Assembly: GCA_963833125.1 (NCBI GenBank)
Contig: CAWHWX010000018.1
Location: forward strand, 96,001-160,000
From: Candidatus Bathyarchaeota archaeon
GTDB lineage: Archaea > Thermoproteota > Bathyarchaeia > 40CM-2-53-6
Reading direction: 5' to 3'
Length of the DNA: 64,000 bases
Positions within the stretch are counted from its first letter, which is position 1. Every line of letters begins with the position of its first letter. Of the stretch, positions 3,204 to 36,547 are shown piece after piece. Made by a program: the position numbers and the translations under genes. The notes below the pieces were generated by a model. It had not been told where the DNA came from. It made no database searches and saw nothing but the letters and a program-made list of their open reading frames with translations.

Positions 3204-6076
3204 ATGTCGTTATCGATGTCAAGGATTTCTAGGAGGACCCTCGGTCTAGTCGCCTTAATCACAGGTTTGATCATACTCTCAACCATCGCTTCTATGTTTC
3301 TAACTCCTGCTGCAGCTGCAGTTGCACCTGCATCACCATCCAACATCCACACCGAAGCGGTGACTTCGATTAAGAAATTCGCTCTCAGTGAATGGACTGT
3401 TCCAACCTCAGCCTCTCAACCCTATGGTATAGGAGTGGACACAAATGGGCGAGTATGGTTTACGGAGAATGCGACTAACAAGCTTGCTAGATTTGACCCC
3501 ACAGACAACAACTTCACTGAATGGAACATTACGACGCCAAACAGTCAACCGCACAATGTATTCGTGAAATTGGTTAAGCTTACGAATACCTCAGTAACTC
3601 AAATATTCTTCACCGAATTTGGCGCGAACAAGATTGCCCGATTTGATTCCTCCACAAACAACCTTACGGAATGGACCCTTCCCGTTGGAAGCAATCCTGC
3701 GGGGATTTACGTGGACAACAACAACGACATCTGGTTCGCAGAGTCCGGTCGAGATATCATCGCACGCCTGACCCCAAGCACGAGTCATCTCACGGAGTGG
3801 GCACTTCCGGGCGCCACCTCAACACCTGGGACTCCGTTATTGAAGCCCTGGGGTATCTACGTTCAAGTTGTCACTACACCGTCCTATAGCAACCGATTCG
3901 TCTGGTTTACGGAGACCCTTGGAAACCAGATAGGACGGATAGAGGTCACAAGCAATCGACTGACTACCTGGGCTCTAACTGGTCTGGGGCATCAACCCAC
4001 GGATCTCGCTATAGCAGTATATCAAACTCTACCGGTTGCGATATTCACCGACGCTAACAACTTTATCTCTGTTCTTGGGAACGATACTGGCGGCGGCTCG
4101 GAGTATTATGAGACCGCCGGGGGACTGCCTTCGCTGAATGCAGGCCCGATGGGGGTCGCGTATGATTCTCCGCGGAACGCTGCTTGGTTTGCTGAGAACA
4201 ATGTTGGAAATATTGCCAACCTCAACGTGAGTATAGCCAGCATATTTGCTGGGCAGCTCTTCACCCCAACTTATTGTACCATCGCACCGCAAGCAGGGTC
4301 CCCAAGCTGCACTGCTCCCTCAGCAATGGCGTCGAGCAATGTTACTCAGTCCATGAATAGGCTGGTCGGGGTGTCGAAAATCCAAAGCCCCGCTACAACA
4401 ACCGTCGGCATTCATCAGGGGCCTATCGACGGAGTCACGGAATACAGCCTCCCTACCAACACTTCAAGGCCGGCCTATGTCGCTATAGATACGCAAGGTA
4501 ATGTTTGGTTTACCGAGAACAACGCTACGGCTAACAGAATAGGCCGTTTTGGTGTTCCATACGTCTTTCAACTAGCAGCAACTCCAAGCCTGCAGACCAT
4601 AAACCCCGGAAATTCAACTACCTTCGCTTTGAACGTCAGTCTCTCAAGTGGTTTGCGCAACCTCTTCAACTCAGCCTCCTTAACACACCTACAGGCGTAA
4701 CAGCCGTTTTCACTCCGCAGTCGCAAAACCCGCCATTTACTTCAACACTCACATTCACTACGACAAATTCAACTCCTACTGGGACCTTTCCGATGACCGT
4801 TGGGGCAAGCAGTGGAGGTCAGGTTCAAACTGCACTAATCACGCTCAGGATTCAAGCAGTTGTGCCGCCGCCCCCGCCGTCTTTCGACTATAGTGTCGGT
4901 GTTACGGGACCGACAACCGCGACTGTGACTCAGGGCGGTTCAGCCTCATTTGGACTAGCAATAACTCTCCTGAGTGGCAATCCTCAGGCCGTGAATCTCA
5001 CTGCTTCGGGATTTCCGTCCGGTGTTAGTTACTCCTTCACCAACCCCGGAGGACAGCCATCCTTCACCTCAACGATCAACGTGTTTACAACTGTGAATAC
5101 TCCCGGAGGAACTTACCCGATCACCATCACTGGAAAGACGAGCGCCGGTCTAACACACACCGCAACTCCGGGGCCGGTGTTAACGATAATCGAACTTCCA
5201 CGTGACTTCAACATCACCGCGCCCGTTACTCAGCTTGTTCTCGTTCAGAGTTCGAGAACCTCAACGACGATAACCCTCCAATCAATTGGTTACTTCAACG
5301 GCAACGTCACTTTGAGCGGTACATTCTCACCATCCTCTGGGCTCCAGGTGACCTTCACACCAACCGCCATTCCCCTACAACCAAATGGTGGTATTGCGCA
5401 GGACTCGATGGTAATAACCGCGCCCAAGAATACGGTGGGGACTTACCAGCTTACCGTAACAGGAGCAAGCACTACTCCATCGCGTACTCATCAACTGGTG
5501 ATAAGCGTCCAGGTCTCCCCATGCCTCATCGCAACGGCAACTTACGGATCAGAACTTGCACCACAGGTACAATTCCTTAGAGACTTCCGCGACCAACAAA
5601 TCATGAACACCTTCGCAGGATCAACCTTCATGGCAGCTTTCAACACATGGTACTATTCCTTCAGCCCCACCATAGCCAAGTATGAATCTACAAGCCCCAG
5701 CTCAAGAGCGGTTGCCAAAGCGGTACTCTATCCGTTGATTGGAATACTGCAAATCTCATCATCCACCTTCAGACTATTCGGCTTCGCACCGGAATTCGCG
5801 GCGTTGGTCAGTGGTTTGTTGGCAGGTTCCTTAATCGGCCTCGCGTACTTCGCATTCCCAGCTTTCTGTACACTTTGGCTACTGAAGCGAAGACTTAGCA
5901 CAGAAGCGAAGGGCAGAGTTATCAAAGTAATGATCCTAGGGTTTGTCACACTGCTGTTCACTTTCGTGATTTCCGAAGCCTTTGCGTTGCCTGTGTCGAT
6001 GATGATTTCCAGCGCGGGTCTCGTGCTTGCGGCCCTACTGGCAGGGAGTCTCTTCTCCCTGCTCTCGCTGCTATAG
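3204..6076 (+). CDS. Large cell-surface protein: Vgb-like beta-propeller, Ig-like repeats, CFI-box-CTERM domain and TM helices; frameshift ~4660 joins ORFs 3204-4700 and 4793-6076
   Basis: Signal peptide; repeated P-x-GI-x-VD-xx-G-x-VWFTE motifs; GTYPITITG Ig-like motifs; CLIATATYGSELAPQVQFLRDFRD...FNTWYYSFSP. Confidence 0.8.
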
Positions 6077-6095
6077 AATACATTAAACAAAGAGC

Positions 6096-7353
6096 CTAAG
6101 CGTTCACACCAGTCATGTGCAGCGACTTTCTTGCCTCTTGAAGCACACGAACTGAAACTTCGCGTACCGGAAGAGAGAGTGTTCGGGCGATCGAATCCAA
6201 ATCCTCGAACTCAGGTTTCATTCCAAGAACCTCTCCCGATTTGTCCCTCGCGATCTTTATTCTCACATTAAACATCTTATCGGCCAACCGTACTTGGATG
6301 GTTACTATTTCCCTCTCACGAATGAATCGATTCCATTGCTGATGCCTGACGCCAAGCGTGCCTGTTTCCGTCATGATAATCTCGGTGATTTTCTTCAAAT
6401 CGTTCGGGCTACAGAGCGCGTGTAATACGTAGCCTGGGCGGTTTTTCTTGAATTGAGCCGAAGTGACCCATGCATCTTTTGCTCCGGATTCGAGAATGCG
6501 TTGCAACGTACTGCCAACTATTTCTCCGGACACATCATCCAGATTGGTCTCGAGTACTTCAACTTGGTCGGATTCAAGGCTCTGTTCTTCGCTTTGGCCA
6601 ATGACAACCGCGGAGCATGTTTGGGGAGGACGCTAATTCTTTCTGTCCTGCACCATACCCTACTCGTTCAGGAATCATTGAAGGAGATCGTTCAAGGAAA
6701 CTGTCTGTCAGGTTGGCGAGCATGGAAATGCCGGTTGGAGTGGTCAATTCCTCATTCGCCGGGCCGCCCACTATCGGGACGTGATACCTACGTACAACTT
6801 CGAGTACCGCTGGTGCTGGGACTGACACTGTCCCGTGTGAGAAAGTGACCGAACCGCCGCCGACGGCAACAGGGGACGAGTAAATCTTTCCTTCGAAAAC
6901 ATTCAACGAATCACATGCGGTCGCCGTGCCGAATATGTCAGCGAGTGTATCAGCCGAGCCTGCTTCGTGTAGATGTACCTTCGAGATCTCGTCACCGTGA
7001 AGTTTGCTCTCAACCTCGGTCAGGGTTCTAATGGAATTCTTTGCGAATGATATCGCGTTTTTGCTGAGTTTCGAAGAATTCGCGATTGCGTCAGTTGCGC
7101 GGACAAGTTCCTGTGCCATGGTTTCGTCAGGTTGCTCAGCAATCGTTAATTCCGCACGGCACGCTCGGAAACCGTGTTTCTTCACTTCCTTCGCGTCAAG
7201 TTTGATTGATTTGCACCGCGGGAAATATCTCGGTATCAGATCCAGCGTCCGCTGAATCGATTCGAGTTTTGCGCCGGCATCGATCAGAGCGCCCAGCAAC
7301 ATATCGCCTGATATGCCCGCTGTCTGCGCGTCGATGAACGCGATTGTTGTCAA
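6096..7353 (-). CDS. larC: Nickel-pincer cofactor nickel insertase LarC; frameshift ~6610
   Basis: AGISGDMLLGALID, HLHEAGSADTLADI, HGTVSVPAPAV, ELTTPTG, GYGAG; C-part KKNRPG, ETGTLGVR, KPEFED. Confidence 0.9.
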
Positions 7354-7846: not shown

Positions 7847-8125
7847 TTAGCTTGCAGATTTTAGATTAAACGGCCTGCCGTCTTCAAGCGTTTTCTGGGG
7901 AATTTGGCTTTTCCATTTTTGCAGGAACGGTACATCTTCATTCTGCTCTCTCAGCTCGTCCGGTAGCATGTGTGGTATTTCATCAATGATTGGGTACCAG
8001 CGGTTGCATTTGGGACAGGTGATCATTCCAGCGTTGACTTCTTCCTTTTCTTCGAATACAAGCAATTCGAGAGGATAGAACTTGTCAATCGGGCAGGCCA
8101 GTATGTCCATTAACTTCCGCTTCAA
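7847..8125 (-). CDS. Trm112-like methyltransferase activator
   Basis: LMDILACPIDK...CPKCNRWYPIIDEIPHMLP. Confidence 0.88.
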   Translation of the reverse strand: MKRKLMDILACPIDKFYPLELLVFEEKEEVNAGMITCPKCNRWYPIIDEIPHMLPDELREQNEDVPFLQKWKSQIPQKTLEDGRPFNLKSAS

Positions 8126-28654: not shown

Positions 28655-29740
28655 ATGACGCAGCGGCTTTCGGTTTTAGATAGATTCCTTACCTTGTGGA
28701 TTTTTCTAGCGATGGCTATCGGCGTGGGCGCAGGTATCGTTTTTCCACAGCTCCCGAAGCTTCTCGAGACGTTGAGTGTAGGCACAATTTCGCTGCCAAT
28801 AGCAGTCGGCCTGCTCTGGATGATGTACCCGCCTTTAGCTCGTGTGAAGTACGATGAGCTCTCGAAGGTGAGAAAGGCATGGAAGATGTTCGGGGTCTCC
28901 CTGTTCCAGAATTGGTTGGTTGGCCCTTTCTTGATGTTCGGTCTGGCATGGCTGTTCCTACCAGACATGCCGGAATACCGGATTGGAATAATCATCGTAG
29001 GGTTGGCCAGGTGTATCGCCATGGTCCTAGTATGGAATATGCTCGCAGAAGGCGACAACGAGCACGCCGCCGTTCTAGTCGCCCTAAACTCCATCTTCCA
29101 GGTCGCACTTTATTCCGTTTACGCGTGGTTCTTCATCACACTCCTATCCTCATGGGTAGCGCATGGCTCCGGGGTAACCGTGGTCATTTCCGTTTGGGAC
29201 ATTGCCCGAACGGTCTTCATCTATCTCGGCATACCATTCATTGCGGGAATTGTGACTAGATTTGTGCTTGTGCGGAAGAAGGGAAAGGATTGGTACGATG
29301 GAACATTCGTTGAAAAGTTGAGCCCAACAGCATTGATCGGGTTGCTATTCACAATCGTGGTAATGTTCTCTCTAAAAGGAGGTTACATCCTCGCTTTACC
29401 ATGGGATGTGGTGAGAATCGCAATACCTCTCGTAAGCTATTTCCTCATTATGTTCACACTATCCTTCATCATTTCTAAGGCCTGGAAATTCAATTACCCA
29501 GAAACAGCCACCCTCTCCTTCACCGCGGCCAGCAACAACTTTGAACTCGCCATAGCAGTTGCAGTCGGTGTTTTCGGGATTAATTCTGGGGAAGCATTCG
29601 CCGCAGTGATTGGGCCACTCTTCGAAGTCCCCGTACTCATAGGCTTAGTCAACGTGGCACTTTGGGCAAGGAAGCGCTTCTTCATCGAAGAACAGACCGC
29701 AACAGCCACAACACAAGTAACGAGTCTAAAACACCGATAA
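28655..29740 (+). CDS. acr3: ACR3 family arsenite efflux permease
   Basis: [52 protein letters not shown]. Confidence 0.95.
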
Positions 29741-29836: not shown

Positions 29837-29996
29837 GCGGCCGTAGTCTAGAAGGCCAACAGTAAAGGCCTGGATACCCTGGTCTAGGACGGGAACAGCA
29901 GAGAACATCTGCTGGCGCAAGCCTGCCACGCTTCTGATCGCCCGCACAGAAAACGGGCGAGAAGACGCCCGGGTTCAAATCCCGGCGGCCGCACCA
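29837..29996 (+). tRNA. tRNA-Gly(GCC) with three introns: 15/16 (29852-29877), 29/30 (29895-29920), 45/46 (29937-29966)
   Basis: GCGGCCG/CGGCCGC acceptor stem; GGA|GC-CT-GCC-AC-GCTTC; intron hairpins AGGCC/GGCCT, CAGCAGA/TCTGCTG, TCGCCCG/CGGGCGA. Confidence 0.92.
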
Positions 29997-30041
29997 CCAG
30001 ACCCACACACACTTTCAGGACGAACGACGACGTACGACGAT

Positions 30042-30082
30042 GGTTCAAATTTGGTTGCTCGCACGATTAGACGCACACACAC
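30042..30082 (+). repeat. Degenerate copy 1 of the tRNA-Gly 3' end and trailer (GGTTCAAAT-N9-CGCAC..AGAC.CACACACAC)
   Basis: Aligns without gaps to 29972-30012 at a 70-bp offset. Confidence 0.75.
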
Positions 30083-30125
30083 ATTAAAACCAAAAACTAG
30101 AACTTCTGGTCTCCTAGCATGACCT

Positions 30126-30837
30126 ATGACTCGTTTGCCGCGCATTTCAATAATCGAGGGTCTACTCAACGGACCAGTACCTCCTGGGTCAAATTTCTTG
30201 GGTAAAATTTGACCCCTTTTTCACAATGGTACAATGCTGCTTTAACAATCGCCGCGGGATGGCTCAATACCCACGGAAAAGTCACCTATCTTCTATCCTC
30301 AAGGGCCCCCGATGACATACGCGCGCAACTCACAAGACTCGGCATCGACGTGCCACAGTCCGAGACAAATGAAACGCTTCGAATATGGGACGTGATACTT
30401 ACAATGCTTGGTATCAAGTCCCGCGAAAAATACAAACTTGAATCGATGAACGTTGCGGACTTACGGATATGGGCTGCAAAGGAGTTTATGCATCAACCCC
30501 CGTCTCCCGACCTCATGTACGTCACGGAAAAGTCATCAGTCCTGGCGAGATACAACGATGAGAAAAGTTGGGTCGACTACACACTGACCAAAATACTTCC
30601 CGCCGTCTCAATGACAAAAGCCATGAACATTCGAGGTATCACGGTCGGCGTTCATAGCGATTCAGCCTACAAGCAACTCGAAGCTGCCTTCGATGGAATA
30701 ATCGACGTTAAGGTCGAGAAATGGCAGGTGAACTTCACAACATCATAAGAGTTAGGAAAATGTTGAACGTAAAGTTCGACTCCCGATGGCACAAACTCAG
30801 AGTGAACGATAACTTCGAGGTAACACTCGGAGAATAG
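30126..30837 (+). CDS. KaiC/RAD55-like RecA-fold protein with degenerate Walker A; two frameshifts (~30200, ~30720)
   Basis: LLNGPVPPGSNFLV-FDPFSQWY, GVHSDSAYKQLEAAFDGIIDVK, IRVRKMLNVKFDSRWH. Confidence 0.72.
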
Positions 30838-30848
30838 TTAGTTCTTGG

Positions 30849-30906
30849 GCGCACACACACAGACCAGAACGACGGTTCAATTTGCGATGCGCGCACCGTC
30901 AGAACC
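30849..30906 (+). repeat. Degenerate tRNA-end-like repeat copy 2
   Basis: GCGCACACACAC...GAACGAC-GGTTCAATT-TGCGATGCG-CGCAC-CGTCAGAACC; core 30874-30896. Confidence 0.7.
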
Positions 30907-30924
30907 AATATTAGAGTTTGCGAA

Positions 30925-32480
30925 TCAGGTGAGCTTCTTTATTCTCCGTTTCTTCTTGCGGGCGAAGTAAATCGCTGGGGCTACTTCGTCAGCAAATTCC
31001 TGTAACATCGATTGATCTTCGTTAGAATAGCCCATGCCTGATTCTCTGGGATCAAGCGCTAAGAGGCGAACCAACCGAGAACTCTTCGATTCCCCACTGA
31101 CTGACGAAGGCAAAGTCAATGGTAGAATCAGAGGAAGAACTTTATCGTCTGACCTGAAGATTGGGGTTCCATCCATCAGACGGCCTAAGCTGGTTTTGTC
31201 CTTTGGAAGATGGGTTGGTTTCGATGGTAGGTTCATCATCTTGGCCAGTTTTAGTTGTCCCCTCGAGTCACCAAGATATACTGCGCCACATCGGATCTTC
31301 AGGAGTTCACAGGTTCTTTCAACTACTTCATTTAATATTTGAGGGAGGTTCTTCAGGTTGCGAATTCGTGAGCGAATTCCGAAAGTTGGCGGCGAAGATG
31401 TACTTGTCTTTGTAGAACATTCGGTTTATGAATTCCTCGCTTCGTTTGTGTATCGGAGAAACAGACTTGCCGACGATCAACGTGGAGCCAACGCCTGAAA
31501 ACTGTGAAGCGTAACGTGAGAGGCTCGAGAACGAGTAAGCGGCGAATAGAACGGATCCGACGAGTCCCTCAAGCACCTTGTCGCTGACCCAAAATAGCAG
31601 AAACAAGCAACCGCTTAACAGTGTGTAAATCAGCGTGCGGTTGATAACCACATAATGTCCCACAAACGACGTCGAAGAATTGAGAGACCTATGCATATTG
31701 GGACTATTGATTGGGAGACTAGGAACGCTGCGAGAAAATTTCGGTAAACGAATAGGTAATCAGAGACGGAAAGAAAGATACTATCGAGATAACTAAGGCA
31801 ACGAGTAGACTGAACAAGATACCTGCTGCCCGCGAATCCGAATGCTACCCATTTAGTCTGTTGCCGCTGTTCCTGCGTCGAACGGCACGGTACCGTACGA
31901 CCTGGGCGTAGATCCCGGGAGAAAGCCCGAAGACATAGAGCAACGCCAGGTATTGGAACGGCCAATTGTAAGGGTTGAAGATGCGGAAAAATAATGATAG
32001 AAACCCCCATGTGACCCAAAGCCCAGCAACCCAGCGTGTCCAATGGGAATGAAATGTCCGTCCGGGAATAGGTAAGCGAGAATTGGGACAGAAACGGTAC
32101 TTGCGGAGAGTAGAAAGTTGATAGCCAAGTTCAGTAGTCTAGTGGCCGATACAGAGAAACCCCGGGCCTGAGCATGCCGTTGGGAGTGCGTAGGAGAGAA
32201 CCTGCACCCTGTGGTAGCGGTTGTCCCATACAAAACCAGAGCTGCAGACACCGCAAGAACCATGTAATTGTCAGACTTACGCGGTGATGATGATCAAGGC
32301 TACCGTTGAAAACACGATAAAATAGATCAGATCGATGGCGACGTAGAAAATTTGCCCGAATTCCATTATGACGCCATCCGCGAAGACAACGGTCGATAAA
32401 AGTATTAGAACTGCAGCTGCAATTCTAGCAGCAATGAGCTGCAGGTATGGCGTTCGAAGTCCGTGTTTTAAGGCAGGCAT
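30925..32480 (-). pseudogene. Multi-TM sensor-like protein with GAF-like tail, split by four or more frameshifts (decay or assembly error)
   Basis: Fragments YLFPDGHF, QRQQTKWVAFG, IGLSILRRRLWDI, VVINRTLIYTLLS, GYSNEDQSMLQEFA resemble membrane domains of bacterial sensor kinases. Confidence 0.6.
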
Positions 32481-32635
32481 GGGAGCGTAATATAAAACCC
32501 GAGAAGAAAAGCTCTTGCAACGTAACTTTTGCCTACCCCCCTCGGATTCGCTGAGCTTACAAGAATGAGGCGAGAGCGAAAGACTGAATCCTTTGTCTAC
32601 GTAGACAATTGACGGTGTTTCCCAAGCGGAATAGC

Positions 32636-32688
32636 GGTGGAATTTGAAAGTTCACTTTAGTCGTCAGAAGTGTGGGTGTGCGCACCAC
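32636..32688 (-). repeat. More degenerate repeat copy (TGGTGCGCACACCCACACTTCTGACGA...TTCAAATTC)
   Basis: Reverse complement resembles the minus-strand copy at 33210-33278. Confidence 0.5.
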
Positions 32689-32766
32689 ATTTTAAGTACA
32701 GATCTCACTATCTGTTCTTAAAATCTTCTAACATTTGCTGGATAAGAGTAGGAATGGAAGCTAGTT

Positions 32767-33186
32767 TTGCCGAATAAAATAATGATTGTTGACGATAAAA
32801 GGGACATGGCTGAGGCAGCTAGGATGGTTCTGGATATGGAGGGATACGAGGTCCTTGTCGCCTACGACGGAGAAGAAACCATCCGGAGGGCAGAGGCAGA
32901 GCTACCTGACCTGATATTCTTAGATATGCACATGCCGGGCAAGAGCGGGGTGGAGGTCTGCAGGATTCTGAAAAGCAACACGAAGACAGGGCTTATTCCT
33001 GTACTCCTCTTCACCGCTTCAGGTGTAAACATTGATGATCTTGTAGTTCAGGCTGGAGCTGACGGATTCTTCCGCAAACCGTTTGCTCCTGAAGACTTAG
33101 TAGCAGAAGTCAAGAAACGTCTTGAACAGTCAAGAGCGAAGAAGCCTCTAATCAGTAAGGGGGCCACGCATAACAACCTATCATAA
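32767..33186 (+). CDS. Stand-alone response regulator receiver (CheY-like)
   Basis: IMIVDD, DLIFLDMHMPGKSG, FTA, KPF. Confidence 0.93.
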   Translation: MPNKIMIVDDKRDMAEAARMVLDMEGYEVLVAYDGEETIRRAEAELPDLIFLDMHMPGKSGVEVCRILKSNTKTGLIPVLLFTASGVNIDDLVVQAGADGFFRKPFAPEDLVAEVKKRLEQSRAKKPLISKGATHNNLS

Positions 33187-33209
33187 GATTCTGGGTGACG
33201 CTCTCGGCT

Positions 33210-33292
33210 GTGTGTTATCACCGGTGCGATCGGTCGAATTTGAACCGTGGCCGTTCGTAAAAGTGTGTCTGCGCACCATCAGACCCATACAC
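33210..33292. repeat. Back-to-back repeat pair: minus-strand full core (33224-33246) and plus-strand half-site CGCACCATCAGACCCATACAC (33272-33292)
   Basis: Minus strand GGTTCAAAT-TCGACCGAT-CGCACC; plus half-site matches 29990-30010 at 19 of 21 nt. Confidence 0.75.
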
Positions 33293-33344: not shown

Positions 33345-34060
33345 TTGAGTGTGCGATCCATGCCACGGATTTCATTGATCGAGGATTTAGCTGCTCAACC
33401 GATACCCGCAGGTACAGTGCTACTAGTGGTCTTTGATCCATCTTCGCAATGGTATAACGCGATCATCACGATTACTGCGGGCTGGCTGAAACAGGGAGGA
33501 AAAGTTGACTATAGCGCCTACACCGAGCCGCCCGAAGCTGTCCGCCTCAAACTAAGTCGACTGGGAGTTAACGCTAGGCAGCTAGAGATGGAGGAGAGAC
33601 TCCAGATCAACGACTGGTACACCGCAACACTCGGGGAGAAATCCAAAGAGAAGCACTCCTTCCCATCACTCAAAGTCTCCGAGCTAAGCTCATTCTTCTC
33701 CAAACTAGAAATACCAGCCAGCCCGAACCGGGGTGGCTGAACATCTCGGATAACACTTCCACCGTGGCGAAATTCAACGATGAAAAGAGTTGGGTAGAAT
33801 ATGTGCTAATGTGGCCTCTTCGAATGGGCCGCATTCGTGGACACACTATGGTTCGTGGTCTAATGGACGGCGTTCACAGCGATTGGGCGTACAAGCAACT
33901 GGAGTCTGCTCATGACGGCATCATTGACTTCAAGTTCGACAAAACAAGCGACCCGCCTAGAAATCAAATGAGAATAAGAACGATGCGAAACGTTCCATTT
34001 GATGGAAACTGGCATCAACTCAAGACCAGCGAAAACTTCGAAGTCAAGTTAGAAACGTAG
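33345..34060 (+). CDS. Second KaiC/RAD55-like protein with degenerate Walker A; frameshift ~33735
   Basis: PIPAGTVLLVVFDPSSQWYNA, FNDEKSWVEY, GVHSDWAYKQLESAHDGIIDFK; paralog of 30126-30837. Confidence 0.75.
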
Positions 34061-36186: not shown

Positions 36187-36547
36187 CACAACCACACCTG
36201 CTAGCCTAATGTGGTCGCTAATTTTCAGCTCTTGTGGCGCTTTCTACTTTCTCGACATGTGCTATTAAGCCAAGAACAGGCTGCGCGGTCGTGGCTTCTA
36301 AATCGAGGGTGTGTTAAACAGGTAACGTCAACTTGTTGGTTGCTGCTGCAAACCGCTTCGTTTGGGGGGATCGGGGCGTAAAATGGGGCGAGGGGTATCT
36401 TCGTTTGGCACCGTTTGGCTCCACCCCTCGAGGGGTGGATCCACCCCACTTAATTCCGCACAGAAAACAGGAGGAATCTCTTAACAACCGTTAACTTGAC
36501 GTTACCGTTAAACAGGTGTTTAGCACCCTGCGCCGTCTGTGGTTGTT

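Follow-up and report, generated by a model that had tools for sequence, protein, structure and literature searches.

A repeat resembling tRNA 3' ends at the borders of exchanged single-gene modules in Bathyarchaeia, and its possible role in recombination

Introduction

Bathyarchaeia are abundant, uncultured archaea of soils and sediments, and the ways in which they acquire genes are poorly understood. This study concerns an island of accessory genes in a 64,000-nucleotide stretch of the genome of a Candidatus Bathyarchaeota archaeon (contig CAWHWX010000018.1 of assembly GCA_963833125.1, positions 96,001 to 160,000; hereafter the window). In this island, a transporter gene and a tRNA-Gly(GCC) gene are followed by a KaiC-like gene, a GAF-domain membrane sensor, a response-regulator receiver (PF00072) and a second KaiC-like gene, and these four genes are set apart from one another by copies of a short repeat. 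A first-pass annotation had described the copies as sites that resemble a tRNA 3' end and stand at the borders of single-gene units; both parts of that description hold, and Pfam comparisons agree with the gene assignments.

In the following, we describe the family to which these copies belong. Its members bound accessory modules of 0.6–1.5 kb, mostly of one gene, which accumulate in variable islands, in many cases a short way downstream of a tRNA gene. The modules and their bounding repeats occur in different contexts, strains and species, and where close variants differ, the repeats mark both limits of the difference. We therefore consider it very probable that the copies are the junction repeats of exchanged modules; how the exchange may come about is weighed after the evidence has been set out.

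Materials and methods

The assembly under study (G000; 3.07 Mb in 39 contigs, 88% complete, 7% contamination) carries the window on its contig C18. Genomes are labelled Gnnn, with relatives from G001 onward, contigs Cn and extracted loci Lnnn. The comparison set comprised 22 other Bathyarchaeia genomes of the same genus, giving 23 genus genomes together with G000, and 18 genomes from outside the genus, giving 41 genomes overall. Many small contigs of G000 are 88–97% identical to stretches of large ones (for instance C2 and C3 to C16, C21 to C19, and C26 and C38 to C12); the bin is therefore a mixture of two or three related strains and offers natural comparisons. Contigs from two soil DNA runs were also compared. 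They yielded short pieces only, one of which carries a junction described below, while a further joint and the loose ends, which could stem from any copy of the repeat, were left unused.

The spaced pattern GGTTCAAWT-N9-CGCAC was counted in the window and in 100 dinucleotide-preserving shuffles. Longer copies, here called units, were collected with a profile in two rounds of nhmmer at E <= 0.01, with a stricter count at E < 1e-3. Genomes were scanned with a 39-letter pattern at up to two mismatches, with the reversed pattern as a control. The unit consensus was drawn from a stack of 118 distinct copies from G000 and public loci, and the folding of 40 single units was expressed as z scores against simple shuffles.

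Results

The island downstream of tRNA-Gly

The spaced pattern occurs four times in the window, where 0.03 occurrences are expected, and none of the 100 shuffles reached four. The copies lie at 29972, 30042 and 30874 on the forward strand and at 33246–33224 on the reverse strand, just where the first-pass annotation had put them, except that the copy at 30874 reads GGTTCAATT and not GGTTCAAAT. Every one of them lies between open reading frames (ORFs). Two partial copies had been proposed in addition: the one at 33272–33292 equals 29990–30010 at 19 of 21 positions on direct reading, while the degenerate one at 32636–32688 (reverse strand) is visible by eye but is not recovered by the nhmmer profile at its cut-off. 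The accompanying motifs CAGACCCACACAC and ACGAACG are likewise real, and both turn out to be parts of the family consensus.

As already suspected in the first-pass annotation, the first copy is, judged by its match to the tRNA model and by its orthologues, the genuine 3' end of a tRNA gene. Neither ARAGORN nor Rfam at its default filter settings reports a tRNA in the window; with laxer filters, RF00005 scores 34.4 bits, above its gathering score of 29, at L074 1500–1656, which corresponds to window 29837–29993, and two orthologous loci with a single intron are called tRNA-Gly(gcc) by ARAGORN. The exons were set from orthologues with fewer introns, and their boundaries are good to 1–2 nt. The introns are placed at 29852–29877, at 29895–29920 and, with 29 nt, within 29935–29968, and the anticodon GCC falls at 29925–29927, so that 29837–29996 has both a cloverleaf with anticodon and a covariance-model match. 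All three introns are in non-canonical positions, namely the D-loop, the anticodon stem and the variable region, and relatives have one, two or three of them.

The true T-loop and acceptor strand of this tRNA run directly into the tail of the repeat family (unit 0 in Table 1), which makes unit 0 a hybrid of a tRNA end and a family tail, similar to an attL site. The same tail stands 3' of tRNA-Gly in G000, G015, G004 and G011; G014 and G013 have it in degenerate form, and G001, G006, G010, G002 and G008 lack it. A second gene of this kind is a tRNA-Ala(tgc) called by ARAGORN at G000:C16:463632–463744, whose T-arm and acceptor 3' strand are nearly those of tRNA-Gly and which is likewise trailed by a tail-like ACTTAC-TCACACAC. 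At the opposite end of tRNA-Gly, the variant contig C29 (L002, about 4621–6330) has a 1.7-kb insertion with a gene for an NHL-repeat secreted protein. The insertion stands between duplicated 22-bp stretches from the tRNA 5' end, which makes this side of the tRNA an insertion site as well.

The island of the window is decaying: the sensor and the two KaiC-like genes, which make up three of the four cargo genes, are frameshifted. The first KaiC-like gene is covered by tblastn pieces at 30135–30200, 30209–30721 and 30718–30828 in comparison with an intact paralogue that matches PF06745, and the sensor is intact (520 aa) in C29. The receiver has an 85%-identical paralogue at G000:C14:105525–106006.

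Table 1. Features of the island downstream of tRNA-Gly(GCC), in window coordinates
Feature	Position	Strand	Evidence or remark
Left flank: ACR3/SBF-family transporter gene, PF01758 E 2e-55	28655..29740	+	Conserved and collinear in C6 and C29, about 95% identity
tRNA-Gly(GCC) gene, three introns, CCA encoded	29837..29996	+	Rfam RF00005 and orthologue comparison
Unit 0: true T-loop and acceptor 3' strand, CGCACCA ending at 29996, then N6 CCAGAC (29997-30002) and CCACACACAC (30003-30012)	29972..30012	+	
Linker M (TTTC..ACGAACGACGAC..), the usual spacer of tandem units	30013..30041	+	Recurs in G000 and relatives
Unit 1, full: head GGTTCAAATT, N5 TGGTT, centre GCTCGCACGA, N6 TTAGAC, tail GCACACACAC	30042..30084	+	nhmmer E 9e-14
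Cargo 1: KaiC-like pseudogene, three frames	30126..30828	+	tblastn with intact paralogue
Truncated core (GCGCACACACAC) and linker, directly 5' of unit 2	30850..30873	+	Read from sequence
Unit 2: head and centre without CCACACAC tail, attR-like	30874..30899	+	C29 homology resumes at 30868
Cargo 2: membrane sensor, weak C-terminal GAF match below Pfam cut-off	30925..32480	-	Five ORFs here
Unit 3: degenerate composite of truncated core, linker and decayed head	32636..32688	-	By eye
Cargo 3: response-regulator receiver, PF00072 E 3e-24	32767..33186	+	Pfam
Unit 4: head and centre, decayed tail	33208..33246	-	nhmmer E 8e-13
Tail-only core after (GT)n-like run: GTGTGTC TG CGCACCA TCAGAC CCATACAC	33263..33292	+	Inverted composite with unit 4
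Cargo 4: second KaiC-like pseudogene, two frames; weak PF06745 match	33360..34054	+	tblastn pieces 33360-33725, 33719-34054

A dispersed, genus-wide repeat family

The 118 copies share a consensus of ~45 nt, GGTTCAAATT-N5-GCYCGCACCA-N6-CCACACACAC, in which three blocks approach 2 bits of information while N5 and N6 carry little. Read from left to right, the unit consists of a head that imitates the T-loop and acceptor 3' strand of a tRNA (GGTTCAAATT-N5-GCY), the invariant core CGCACCA, a 6-nt spacer and the tail CCACACACAC. The N5 block varies around xxGxT and hence is not free, and the most constant part is CGCACCA-N6-CCACACAC. Two features assigned to the sites at first reading do not survive this comparison: instead of a freely variable 9-nt centre, there is variation around xxGxT-GCY with the strongest conservation further to the right, and the proposed inverted arms GGTTC and GGTGC find no support in the conservation profile. 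Outside tRNA genes, the copies have a T where C61 is expected and possess no partner strand for the T-stem or the acceptor stem; going by these positions, the unit consensus is not a valid tRNA end. In some copies, a (GT)n run or a real tRNA 3' end replaces the head, and GC-rich left arms occur as well. Tandem units are joined by a semi-conserved linker (TTTC..ACGACGAACGACGAC) with a period of about 70 nt.

The variable blocks of head and tail are each internally linked (p < 0.0005) but not linked to one another (permutation p 0.03–0.76), which fits frequent exchange between them. An inverted core stands upstream of 15 of the 118 units and forms with them a ~105-nt element with inverted ends of 20–25 nt. 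Single units fold no better than their shuffles (mean z −0.32, with 3% below −2), and no covarying pairs were found in the stack, where most pairs with top mutual information are neighbouring columns and none of them joins head and tail. The unit was also considered as a coding remnant of a split integrase; this was rejected on its conservation in blocks of 8–10 nt, in which no three-base periodicity is seen by eye.

G000 holds 21 exact pattern matches and 54 nhmmer hits, 42 of them at the stricter threshold, and the copies cluster on C1 (96–120 kb and 320–350 kb), C11, C14, C16 and C32 and at contig ends. A loose classification yields 14 units with head and tail, 39 tail-only cores, about 20 of which have a (GT)n run in place of the head (a manual count from the listing), and 4 tRNA-type heads with tail, next to a class of 37 heads without tail that mixes chance matches with clear cases such as 30874. 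The scan with the 39-letter pattern picks up 20 of the 22 other genomes of the genus, with up to 37 hits each, and 3 of the 18 outside it, while the reversed pattern gives none in all 41 genomes. When one genome per species was scanned for the exact motif, 71 loci emerged, 68 of them named Bathyarchaeia or Bathyarchaeota, one labelled only as an archaeon and two on contigs binned as bacteria. By these scans of the genome and of related genomes, which the first-pass annotation had proposed, the family is real and widespread. The accompanying idea of a local array derived from tRNA-Gly gives way to that of a dispersed family with members throughout the genus, some of them beside core genes.

Most units of G000 are intergenic, 37 of the 54 lying between ORFs of at least 70 aa, where non-coding DNA makes up ~15% by the same crude calls; 12 of the 17 units 'inside' genes fall in ORFs of at most 112 aa. 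The orientation of 126 copies relative to the neighbouring genes is distributed 25/19/17/15 over the four arrangements, with 17 further copies inside crude ORFs and 33 at locus edges, and reveals no bias toward either neighbour. At the gene for ribosomal protein L10e, two units lie downstream in G000 but none at four orthologous loci, and synteny ends there. The copies are thus young and movable, and not conserved in place.

KaiC-like proteins without Walker A are the commonest neighbours of the units: when 310 flanking ORFs were clustered, no group was larger than theirs, with 12 members from 9 sources; conversely, 9 of about 19 KaiC-like paralogue loci in G000 have a unit 40–150 nt from the gene. 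The other cargo includes glycosyltransferases, a GNAT acetyltransferase, glyoxalase-like proteins, SnoaL- and TPR-KaiC fusions, a weak Cass2 match, secreted proteins and orphans. None of the eight cargo proteins tested matches a defence-system model.

Two other repeats were met along the way. One (GGGGATTCTGACCCC-AATTTACCGGTACATATAA), found for example at G000:C9:3862, C11:4756 and C14:44788 and at 7877–7926 and 12090–12141 of L157 (G011:C5), combines a decayed tRNA 3' end in inverted orientation with the inverted end of a ~4.2-kb integrase-bearing element that is intact in G011. A motif scan places this second family at 12 positions in G000, not all of them convincing, and 8 of its 29 listed copies border immediately on the junction repeat. 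Its interpretation as the C-terminus of a conserved protein was rejected, as the upstream frames are not conserved. The other is a separate interspersed repeat of ~190 bp at window 36320–36509, with about 30 copies of 85–94% identity on at least 14 contigs of G000, which has the look of a miniature inverted-repeat transposable element (MITE).

Exchange of modules between variants, contexts and species

The variability of the cargo downstream of tRNA-Gly, anticipated in the first-pass annotation, is directly visible in the co-assembled variants of the locus. Contig C6 is collinear with the window at 96% identity. C29 and C18 have in common the transporter gene, the tRNA and the tail up to 30012, and then the stretch from 30868 to 32572. 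Between 30012 and 30868, the window has 856 bp with one KaiC-like gene, whereas C29 has 1414 bp with a KaiC-like gene in the opposite orientation and a glyoxalase-like gene, so that the differences begin and end at repeats. The right junction of the C29 type is also present on a contig of an independent soil run, in agreement with this picture. Across all co-assembled variant contigs, homology has 83 internal ends, and a unit stands no more than 40 nt away from 8 of them; 200 trials of random placement gave 0.275 such ends on average and never more than 2. The eight ends are not all independent and stand for about five events.

Individual modules can be followed through different surroundings. 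One of them, 650 bp long, holds a 141-aa membrane ORF and has units on both sides; its copies on C14 and C16 agree at 96% within unrelated flanks, and the identity in G013 is 93%. The clearest case, ~640 bp long and with an orphan ORF of 127 aa, is present as a single copy in 13 of the 23 genus genomes; it starts at the CACACAC tail and linker and ends with head and centre. Its nucleotide identity to the copy in G021 is 83–98%, whereas the adjoining core gene of G021 reaches 69–84% in the same genomes. In all ten other genomes that match both, including the three-contig G016, the module is on a different contig from the orthologue of that core gene. Its flanks are unrelated in most genomes, with a right flank common to G019, G016 and contig C39, and its N6 spacer differs on both sides between contexts, as would be expected if strand exchange occurs in a spacer that tolerates heterology. 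Both modules are thus single-ORF cassettes with one site each that are found in different arrays.

The 127-aa ORF itself (L018 902–1285; also G000:C32:23423–23797) has 80–100% protein identity across 11 other genus genomes. It has no significant match in Pfam, PHROG or PADLOC, and in the protein atlas it falls into clusters without names, with a 0.89 lead to EACC1 only.

Replacement between fixed flanks is seen in G021 and G018, which agree at 98.2% over 653 nt on the left and at 93.8% over 1245 nt on the right but carry inserts of 854 and 848 bp, respectively, that have no detectable similarity. Here, the left junction lies inside a unit, directly after GGTTCAAATT-GCGTT-GC, and the right one about 20 nt beyond a tRNA 3' end. 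Likewise, a 6.9-kb segment of KaiC-like genes separated by units in G014 measures 1.8 kb in its close relative G013. A nitroreductase module next to a G014 unit was uninformative, since its highly similar counterparts in G004 and G011 are not accompanied by units.

Discussion

A possible mechanism

The likeliest mechanism, in our view, is that the modules are moved by site-specific recombination. They would be inserted, excised and exchanged by a recombinase that is provided in trans, be it from the host, a virus or a plasmid, and that would act on the core, with strand exchange in or beside the variable 6-nt spacer. Such a reaction would leave three kinds of product: hybrids of a tRNA end and a tail (attL-like, as at 29972–30012), heads without tail (attR-like, as at 30874) and full units (attP-like, as at 30042). 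The anatomy of the unit, with conserved blocks flanking a variable spacer, fits a recombination site, and the hybrid classes correspond to attL, attR and attP. The resemblance of the unit to tRNA 3' ends, its fusion to them and the lack of linkage between the variable blocks of head and tail count in favour of this mechanism as well.

Several observations weigh against this mechanism, and they concern first the site. The position of the junction, determined by eye, varies between the linker/head border, the head/centre border, the N6 spacer and the end of the tail. Ends of BLAST alignments accumulate at the outer borders of the unit, in part an effect of how conserved the unit is, and 75 of the 83 variant breakpoints are not at units at all. 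The two arms that enclose N6, GCYCGCACCA on one side and CCACACACAC on the other, do not mirror each other as inverted copies. Cargo-less tandem arrays of units (~70-nt period) exist, as do units beside core genes.

The second group of objections concerns the enzyme. The window has no match to the tyrosine recombinase family PF00589, as the first-pass annotation had stated, and the 12 matches of G000 lie on C16, C22, C28 and C12. The clustering of the 310 flanking ORFs produced no recombinase among the recurrent neighbours of the units. G018, which is 98% complete in 5 contigs, has 17 units and no PF00589 match, so that not even an XerA-type recombinase is detected there, and G007 has 13 units and no such match either. 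The tyrosine recombinase once expected to co-occur with the sites was thus not found, and the numbers of tyrosine recombinases do not follow those of the units across the genus genomes. Other enzyme families are rare, with a Y1 transposase (PF01797) in 1 and a serine recombinase in 2 of the 23 genus genomes, and G000 matches neither family. Finally, the circular or tandem junction predicted for the 127-aa-ORF cassette has no match in metagenome_contigs, although an exact 32-letter match is a weak test, and by this test no circular form or excised cassette was seen.

The start of contig C16 (G000:C16:1240-12959) has six tyrosine-recombinase matches on one strand within 12 kb. Two observations in favour of the mechanism link the units to integrases or proviruses. 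On G011:C5 (L157), a tRNA gene is accompanied by an integrase gene (PF00589, E 2e-27) and, about 4.2 kb away, by a decayed second tRNA 3' end; single genes delimited by units come after this tRNA-adjacent element, whose inverted ends belong to the second repeat family that abuts units in several genomes. The head pattern also occurs at three loci in two records classed as proviruses, in one of them between virion genes; neither record has a PF00589 match, and this evidence does not suffice to call the motif an attP.

Weighing the evidence for site-specific recombination together with the failure to find an accompanying recombinase and the shifting junctions, we therefore hold the whole statement, junction repeats plus recombination in trans, only tentatively, at close to an even chance, and discuss three other explanations alongside it.

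Other explanations

The most serious contender, which we consider a real if smaller possibility, is that the unit is a passive dispersed repeat, similar to repetitive extragenic palindromic (REP) sequences, bacterial interspersed mosaic elements (BIMEs) or MITEs, that spreads by its own transposition or by gene conversion and has no cassette function. About 40 near-identical copies would then provide homology for ectopic recombination, deletion and gene conversion, and the borders of modules would coincide with repeats for this reason. Such a repeat would readily account for junctions that vary within and around the unit, for the unbiased orientations (25/19/17/15), for cargo-less tandem arrays and mosaic forms with heads, (GT)n runs or GC-rich left arms, for units beside core genes, for the ~105-nt composite with an inverted upstream core (15/118) and for the failure to find a co-occurring recombinase. 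Other observations speak against it. The uninterrupted identity between copies is only about 10–25 nt, which is short for homologous recombination; no target-site duplication is seen by eye at the composite copies; an autonomous partner with the same ends was not met, although no systematic search for one was made; the hairpin typical of REPs is absent in single units (mean fold z −0.3); and Y1 genes of the type found in REP-associated tyrosine transposases (RAYTs) occur in only one of the 23 genus genomes. Moreover, a passive repeat would not by itself account for whole single-gene modules that are 15–25 points more similar across species than the adjoining core gene, or for the likeness of the unit to a tRNA 3' end and its fusion to real ones.

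We consider it improbable that the copies are scars, that is, decayed attL and attR sites of larger, integrase-bearing viruses or plasmids that integrated successively into tRNA genes and then eroded. The 3' ends of tRNA genes are the usual attB sites of archaea, and several findings fit this reading: the tRNA, integrase and decayed second tRNA 3' end of G011:C5, the second, tRNA-end-like family of G000 with its abutting units, the 1.7-kb insertion of C29 between duplicated tRNA 5' ends, and the pseudogenes among the cargo of the window. Scars, however, should match their source tRNA and decay at random, whereas the units have a common consensus unlike that of a tRNA (T at C61, no T-stem partner), with three blocks that are nearly invariant across 20 genomes. 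Most units do not adjoin tRNA genes, and the modules between them are single genes with high similarity across species instead of eroded provirus remains.

A cis-regulatory or RNA element kept by selection, be it a promoter, a terminator, a processing signal or a small RNA, might explain the intergenic position of 37 of the 54 units (against ~15% non-coding DNA), the T-rich stretch that often lies 3' of the tail and the proximity to KaiC-like genes (40–150 nt at 9 of about 19 loci), but is very improbable given that the units show no orientation bias toward either neighbour, on which promoters and terminators were rejected, no fold signal, covarying pairs or long-range covariation and, in the window, no Rfam family at its gathering score (default filters), on which RNA elements were rejected, that they are not conserved at orthologous positions, and that the head lacks the local TATA form that precedes tRNA genes.

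Comparison with known systems

In tRNA-gene integration by tyrosine integrases of the SSV or pTN3 type, attL and attR are identical copies of the 3' part of one tRNA, and the element between them is large and carries the integrase. The junction repeat resembles these sites in that it overlaps the T-loop and 3' end, its islands lie downstream of tRNAs and the attL-like site leaves the tRNA intact; the locus in G011 is even a classical case with integrase. By contrast, the junction repeat comes in tens of copies with a consensus that is not that of a tRNA, it delimits single genes, also far from tRNAs, and has no integrase nearby. Accordingly, the earlier view that the window is not a single provirus between attL and attR stands: its copies share only GGTTCAAWT and CGCAC(CA) with the tRNA, their 9-nt centres differ, they number at least four and lie in both orientations, and there is no integrase.

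REPs and BIMEs with their RAYTs, as well as MITEs, are short intergenic repeats in mosaic or tandem arrangement that act as hot spots of rearrangement, and the units share with them the intergenic position, the tens of copies in both orientations, the mosaic and tandem arrangements and the association with rearrangement. They differ from REPs and BIMEs in having no hairpin, and PF01797 is present in a single genus genome other than G000. MITE-like inverted ends exist only in the composite form (15/118), with no duplication visible by eye and no partner met, for which no systematic search was made. To our knowledge, REPs do not bound laterally exchanged single-gene modules.

The variable spacer has a parallel in Tn916, where coupling sequences of 6 variable nt lie between conserved element ends and differ at every junction. 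A variable stretch of this length would be expected if strand exchange tolerates heterology in the overlap. Tn916, however, is a large element with its own integrase and excisionase, and no such genes accompany the modules described here. In a shufflon, inverted repeats lie within or after one gene, whose segments invert under an adjacent Rci-type recombinase; the units instead part unrelated genes, which are replaced or relocated, and have no adjacent recombinase.

The dif or pdif modules of Acinetobacter plasmids are moved by Xer recombinases at 28-bp sites of 11-6-11 architecture with inverted arms and alternating orientation. They come close to the present case as modules of one or two genes that are bounded by a short site, occur in many contexts and rely on a recombinase encoded elsewhere. 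The differences lie in the arms around N6, which are not inverted copies here, and in G018, which has no detectable tyrosine recombinase beside its 17 units.

The nearest parallel in organization is offered by integrons and by CALINs, clusters of attC sites without an integrase that occur also in Archaea (PMC9668308). As in the present case, arrays of mostly single-gene cassettes are split by a repeated site, the copies of which are more alike within a lineage, cassettes are common to several genomes, and many arrays have no integrase nearby. The small accessory enzymes typical of such cassettes have their counterparts here in the GNAT and glyoxalase-like proteins and the weak Cass2 match. The archaeal integrons described so far have the bacterial type of attC (Sci Adv 2022, PMC9668308). 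An attC site is an imperfect palindrome that works as a folded single strand, with the R'' and R' core sites RYYYAAC and GTTRRRY. The unit has no fold signal, and its head GTTCAAA breaks GTTRRRY at the fourth base. Furthermore, its cassettes lie in both orientations, unlike those of most integron arrays, no IntI or attI was found, and the site imitates and fuses to tRNA 3' ends. The system is no integron by the features that define one, having neither IntI nor attI, no GTTRRRY core and no attC that folds, and the integron- or shufflon-like array of the first-pass annotation has the defining features of neither. Those of a single provirus att pair, of REP/RAYT elements and of Xer/dif sites are likewise not shown by the units.

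In the way it would function, the system nevertheless seems most similar to integrons and CALINs or to dif modules, with short sites, single-gene modules and an enzyme encoded elsewhere. A more specific version, which we regard as rather unlikely, is an archaeal cassette system that is integron-like but built differently: its site would be linear, double-stranded and similar to a tRNA 3' end (CGCACCA-N6-CCACACACAC with alternative left arms), its recombinase would be viral or belong to a family outside those tested, tRNA genes would serve as the primary docking sites, and the cassettes would now be spreading between species of one Bathyarchaeia genus. Literature searching that did not use the motif itself found no paper on the junction repeat, although we do not claim that it is unpublished; in our assessment, there is a fair chance that it belongs to a new cassette system. 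Even as a passive repeat, it would explain why assemblies break and vary at these places. As a mark of where single genes enter and leave, it offers a handle on the accessory gene pool of these archaea, a means of finding recent transfers in metagenomes and a substrate for the search for the recombinase. If this enzyme proves to be new, a second cassette system, independently built, would stand beside the integrons.

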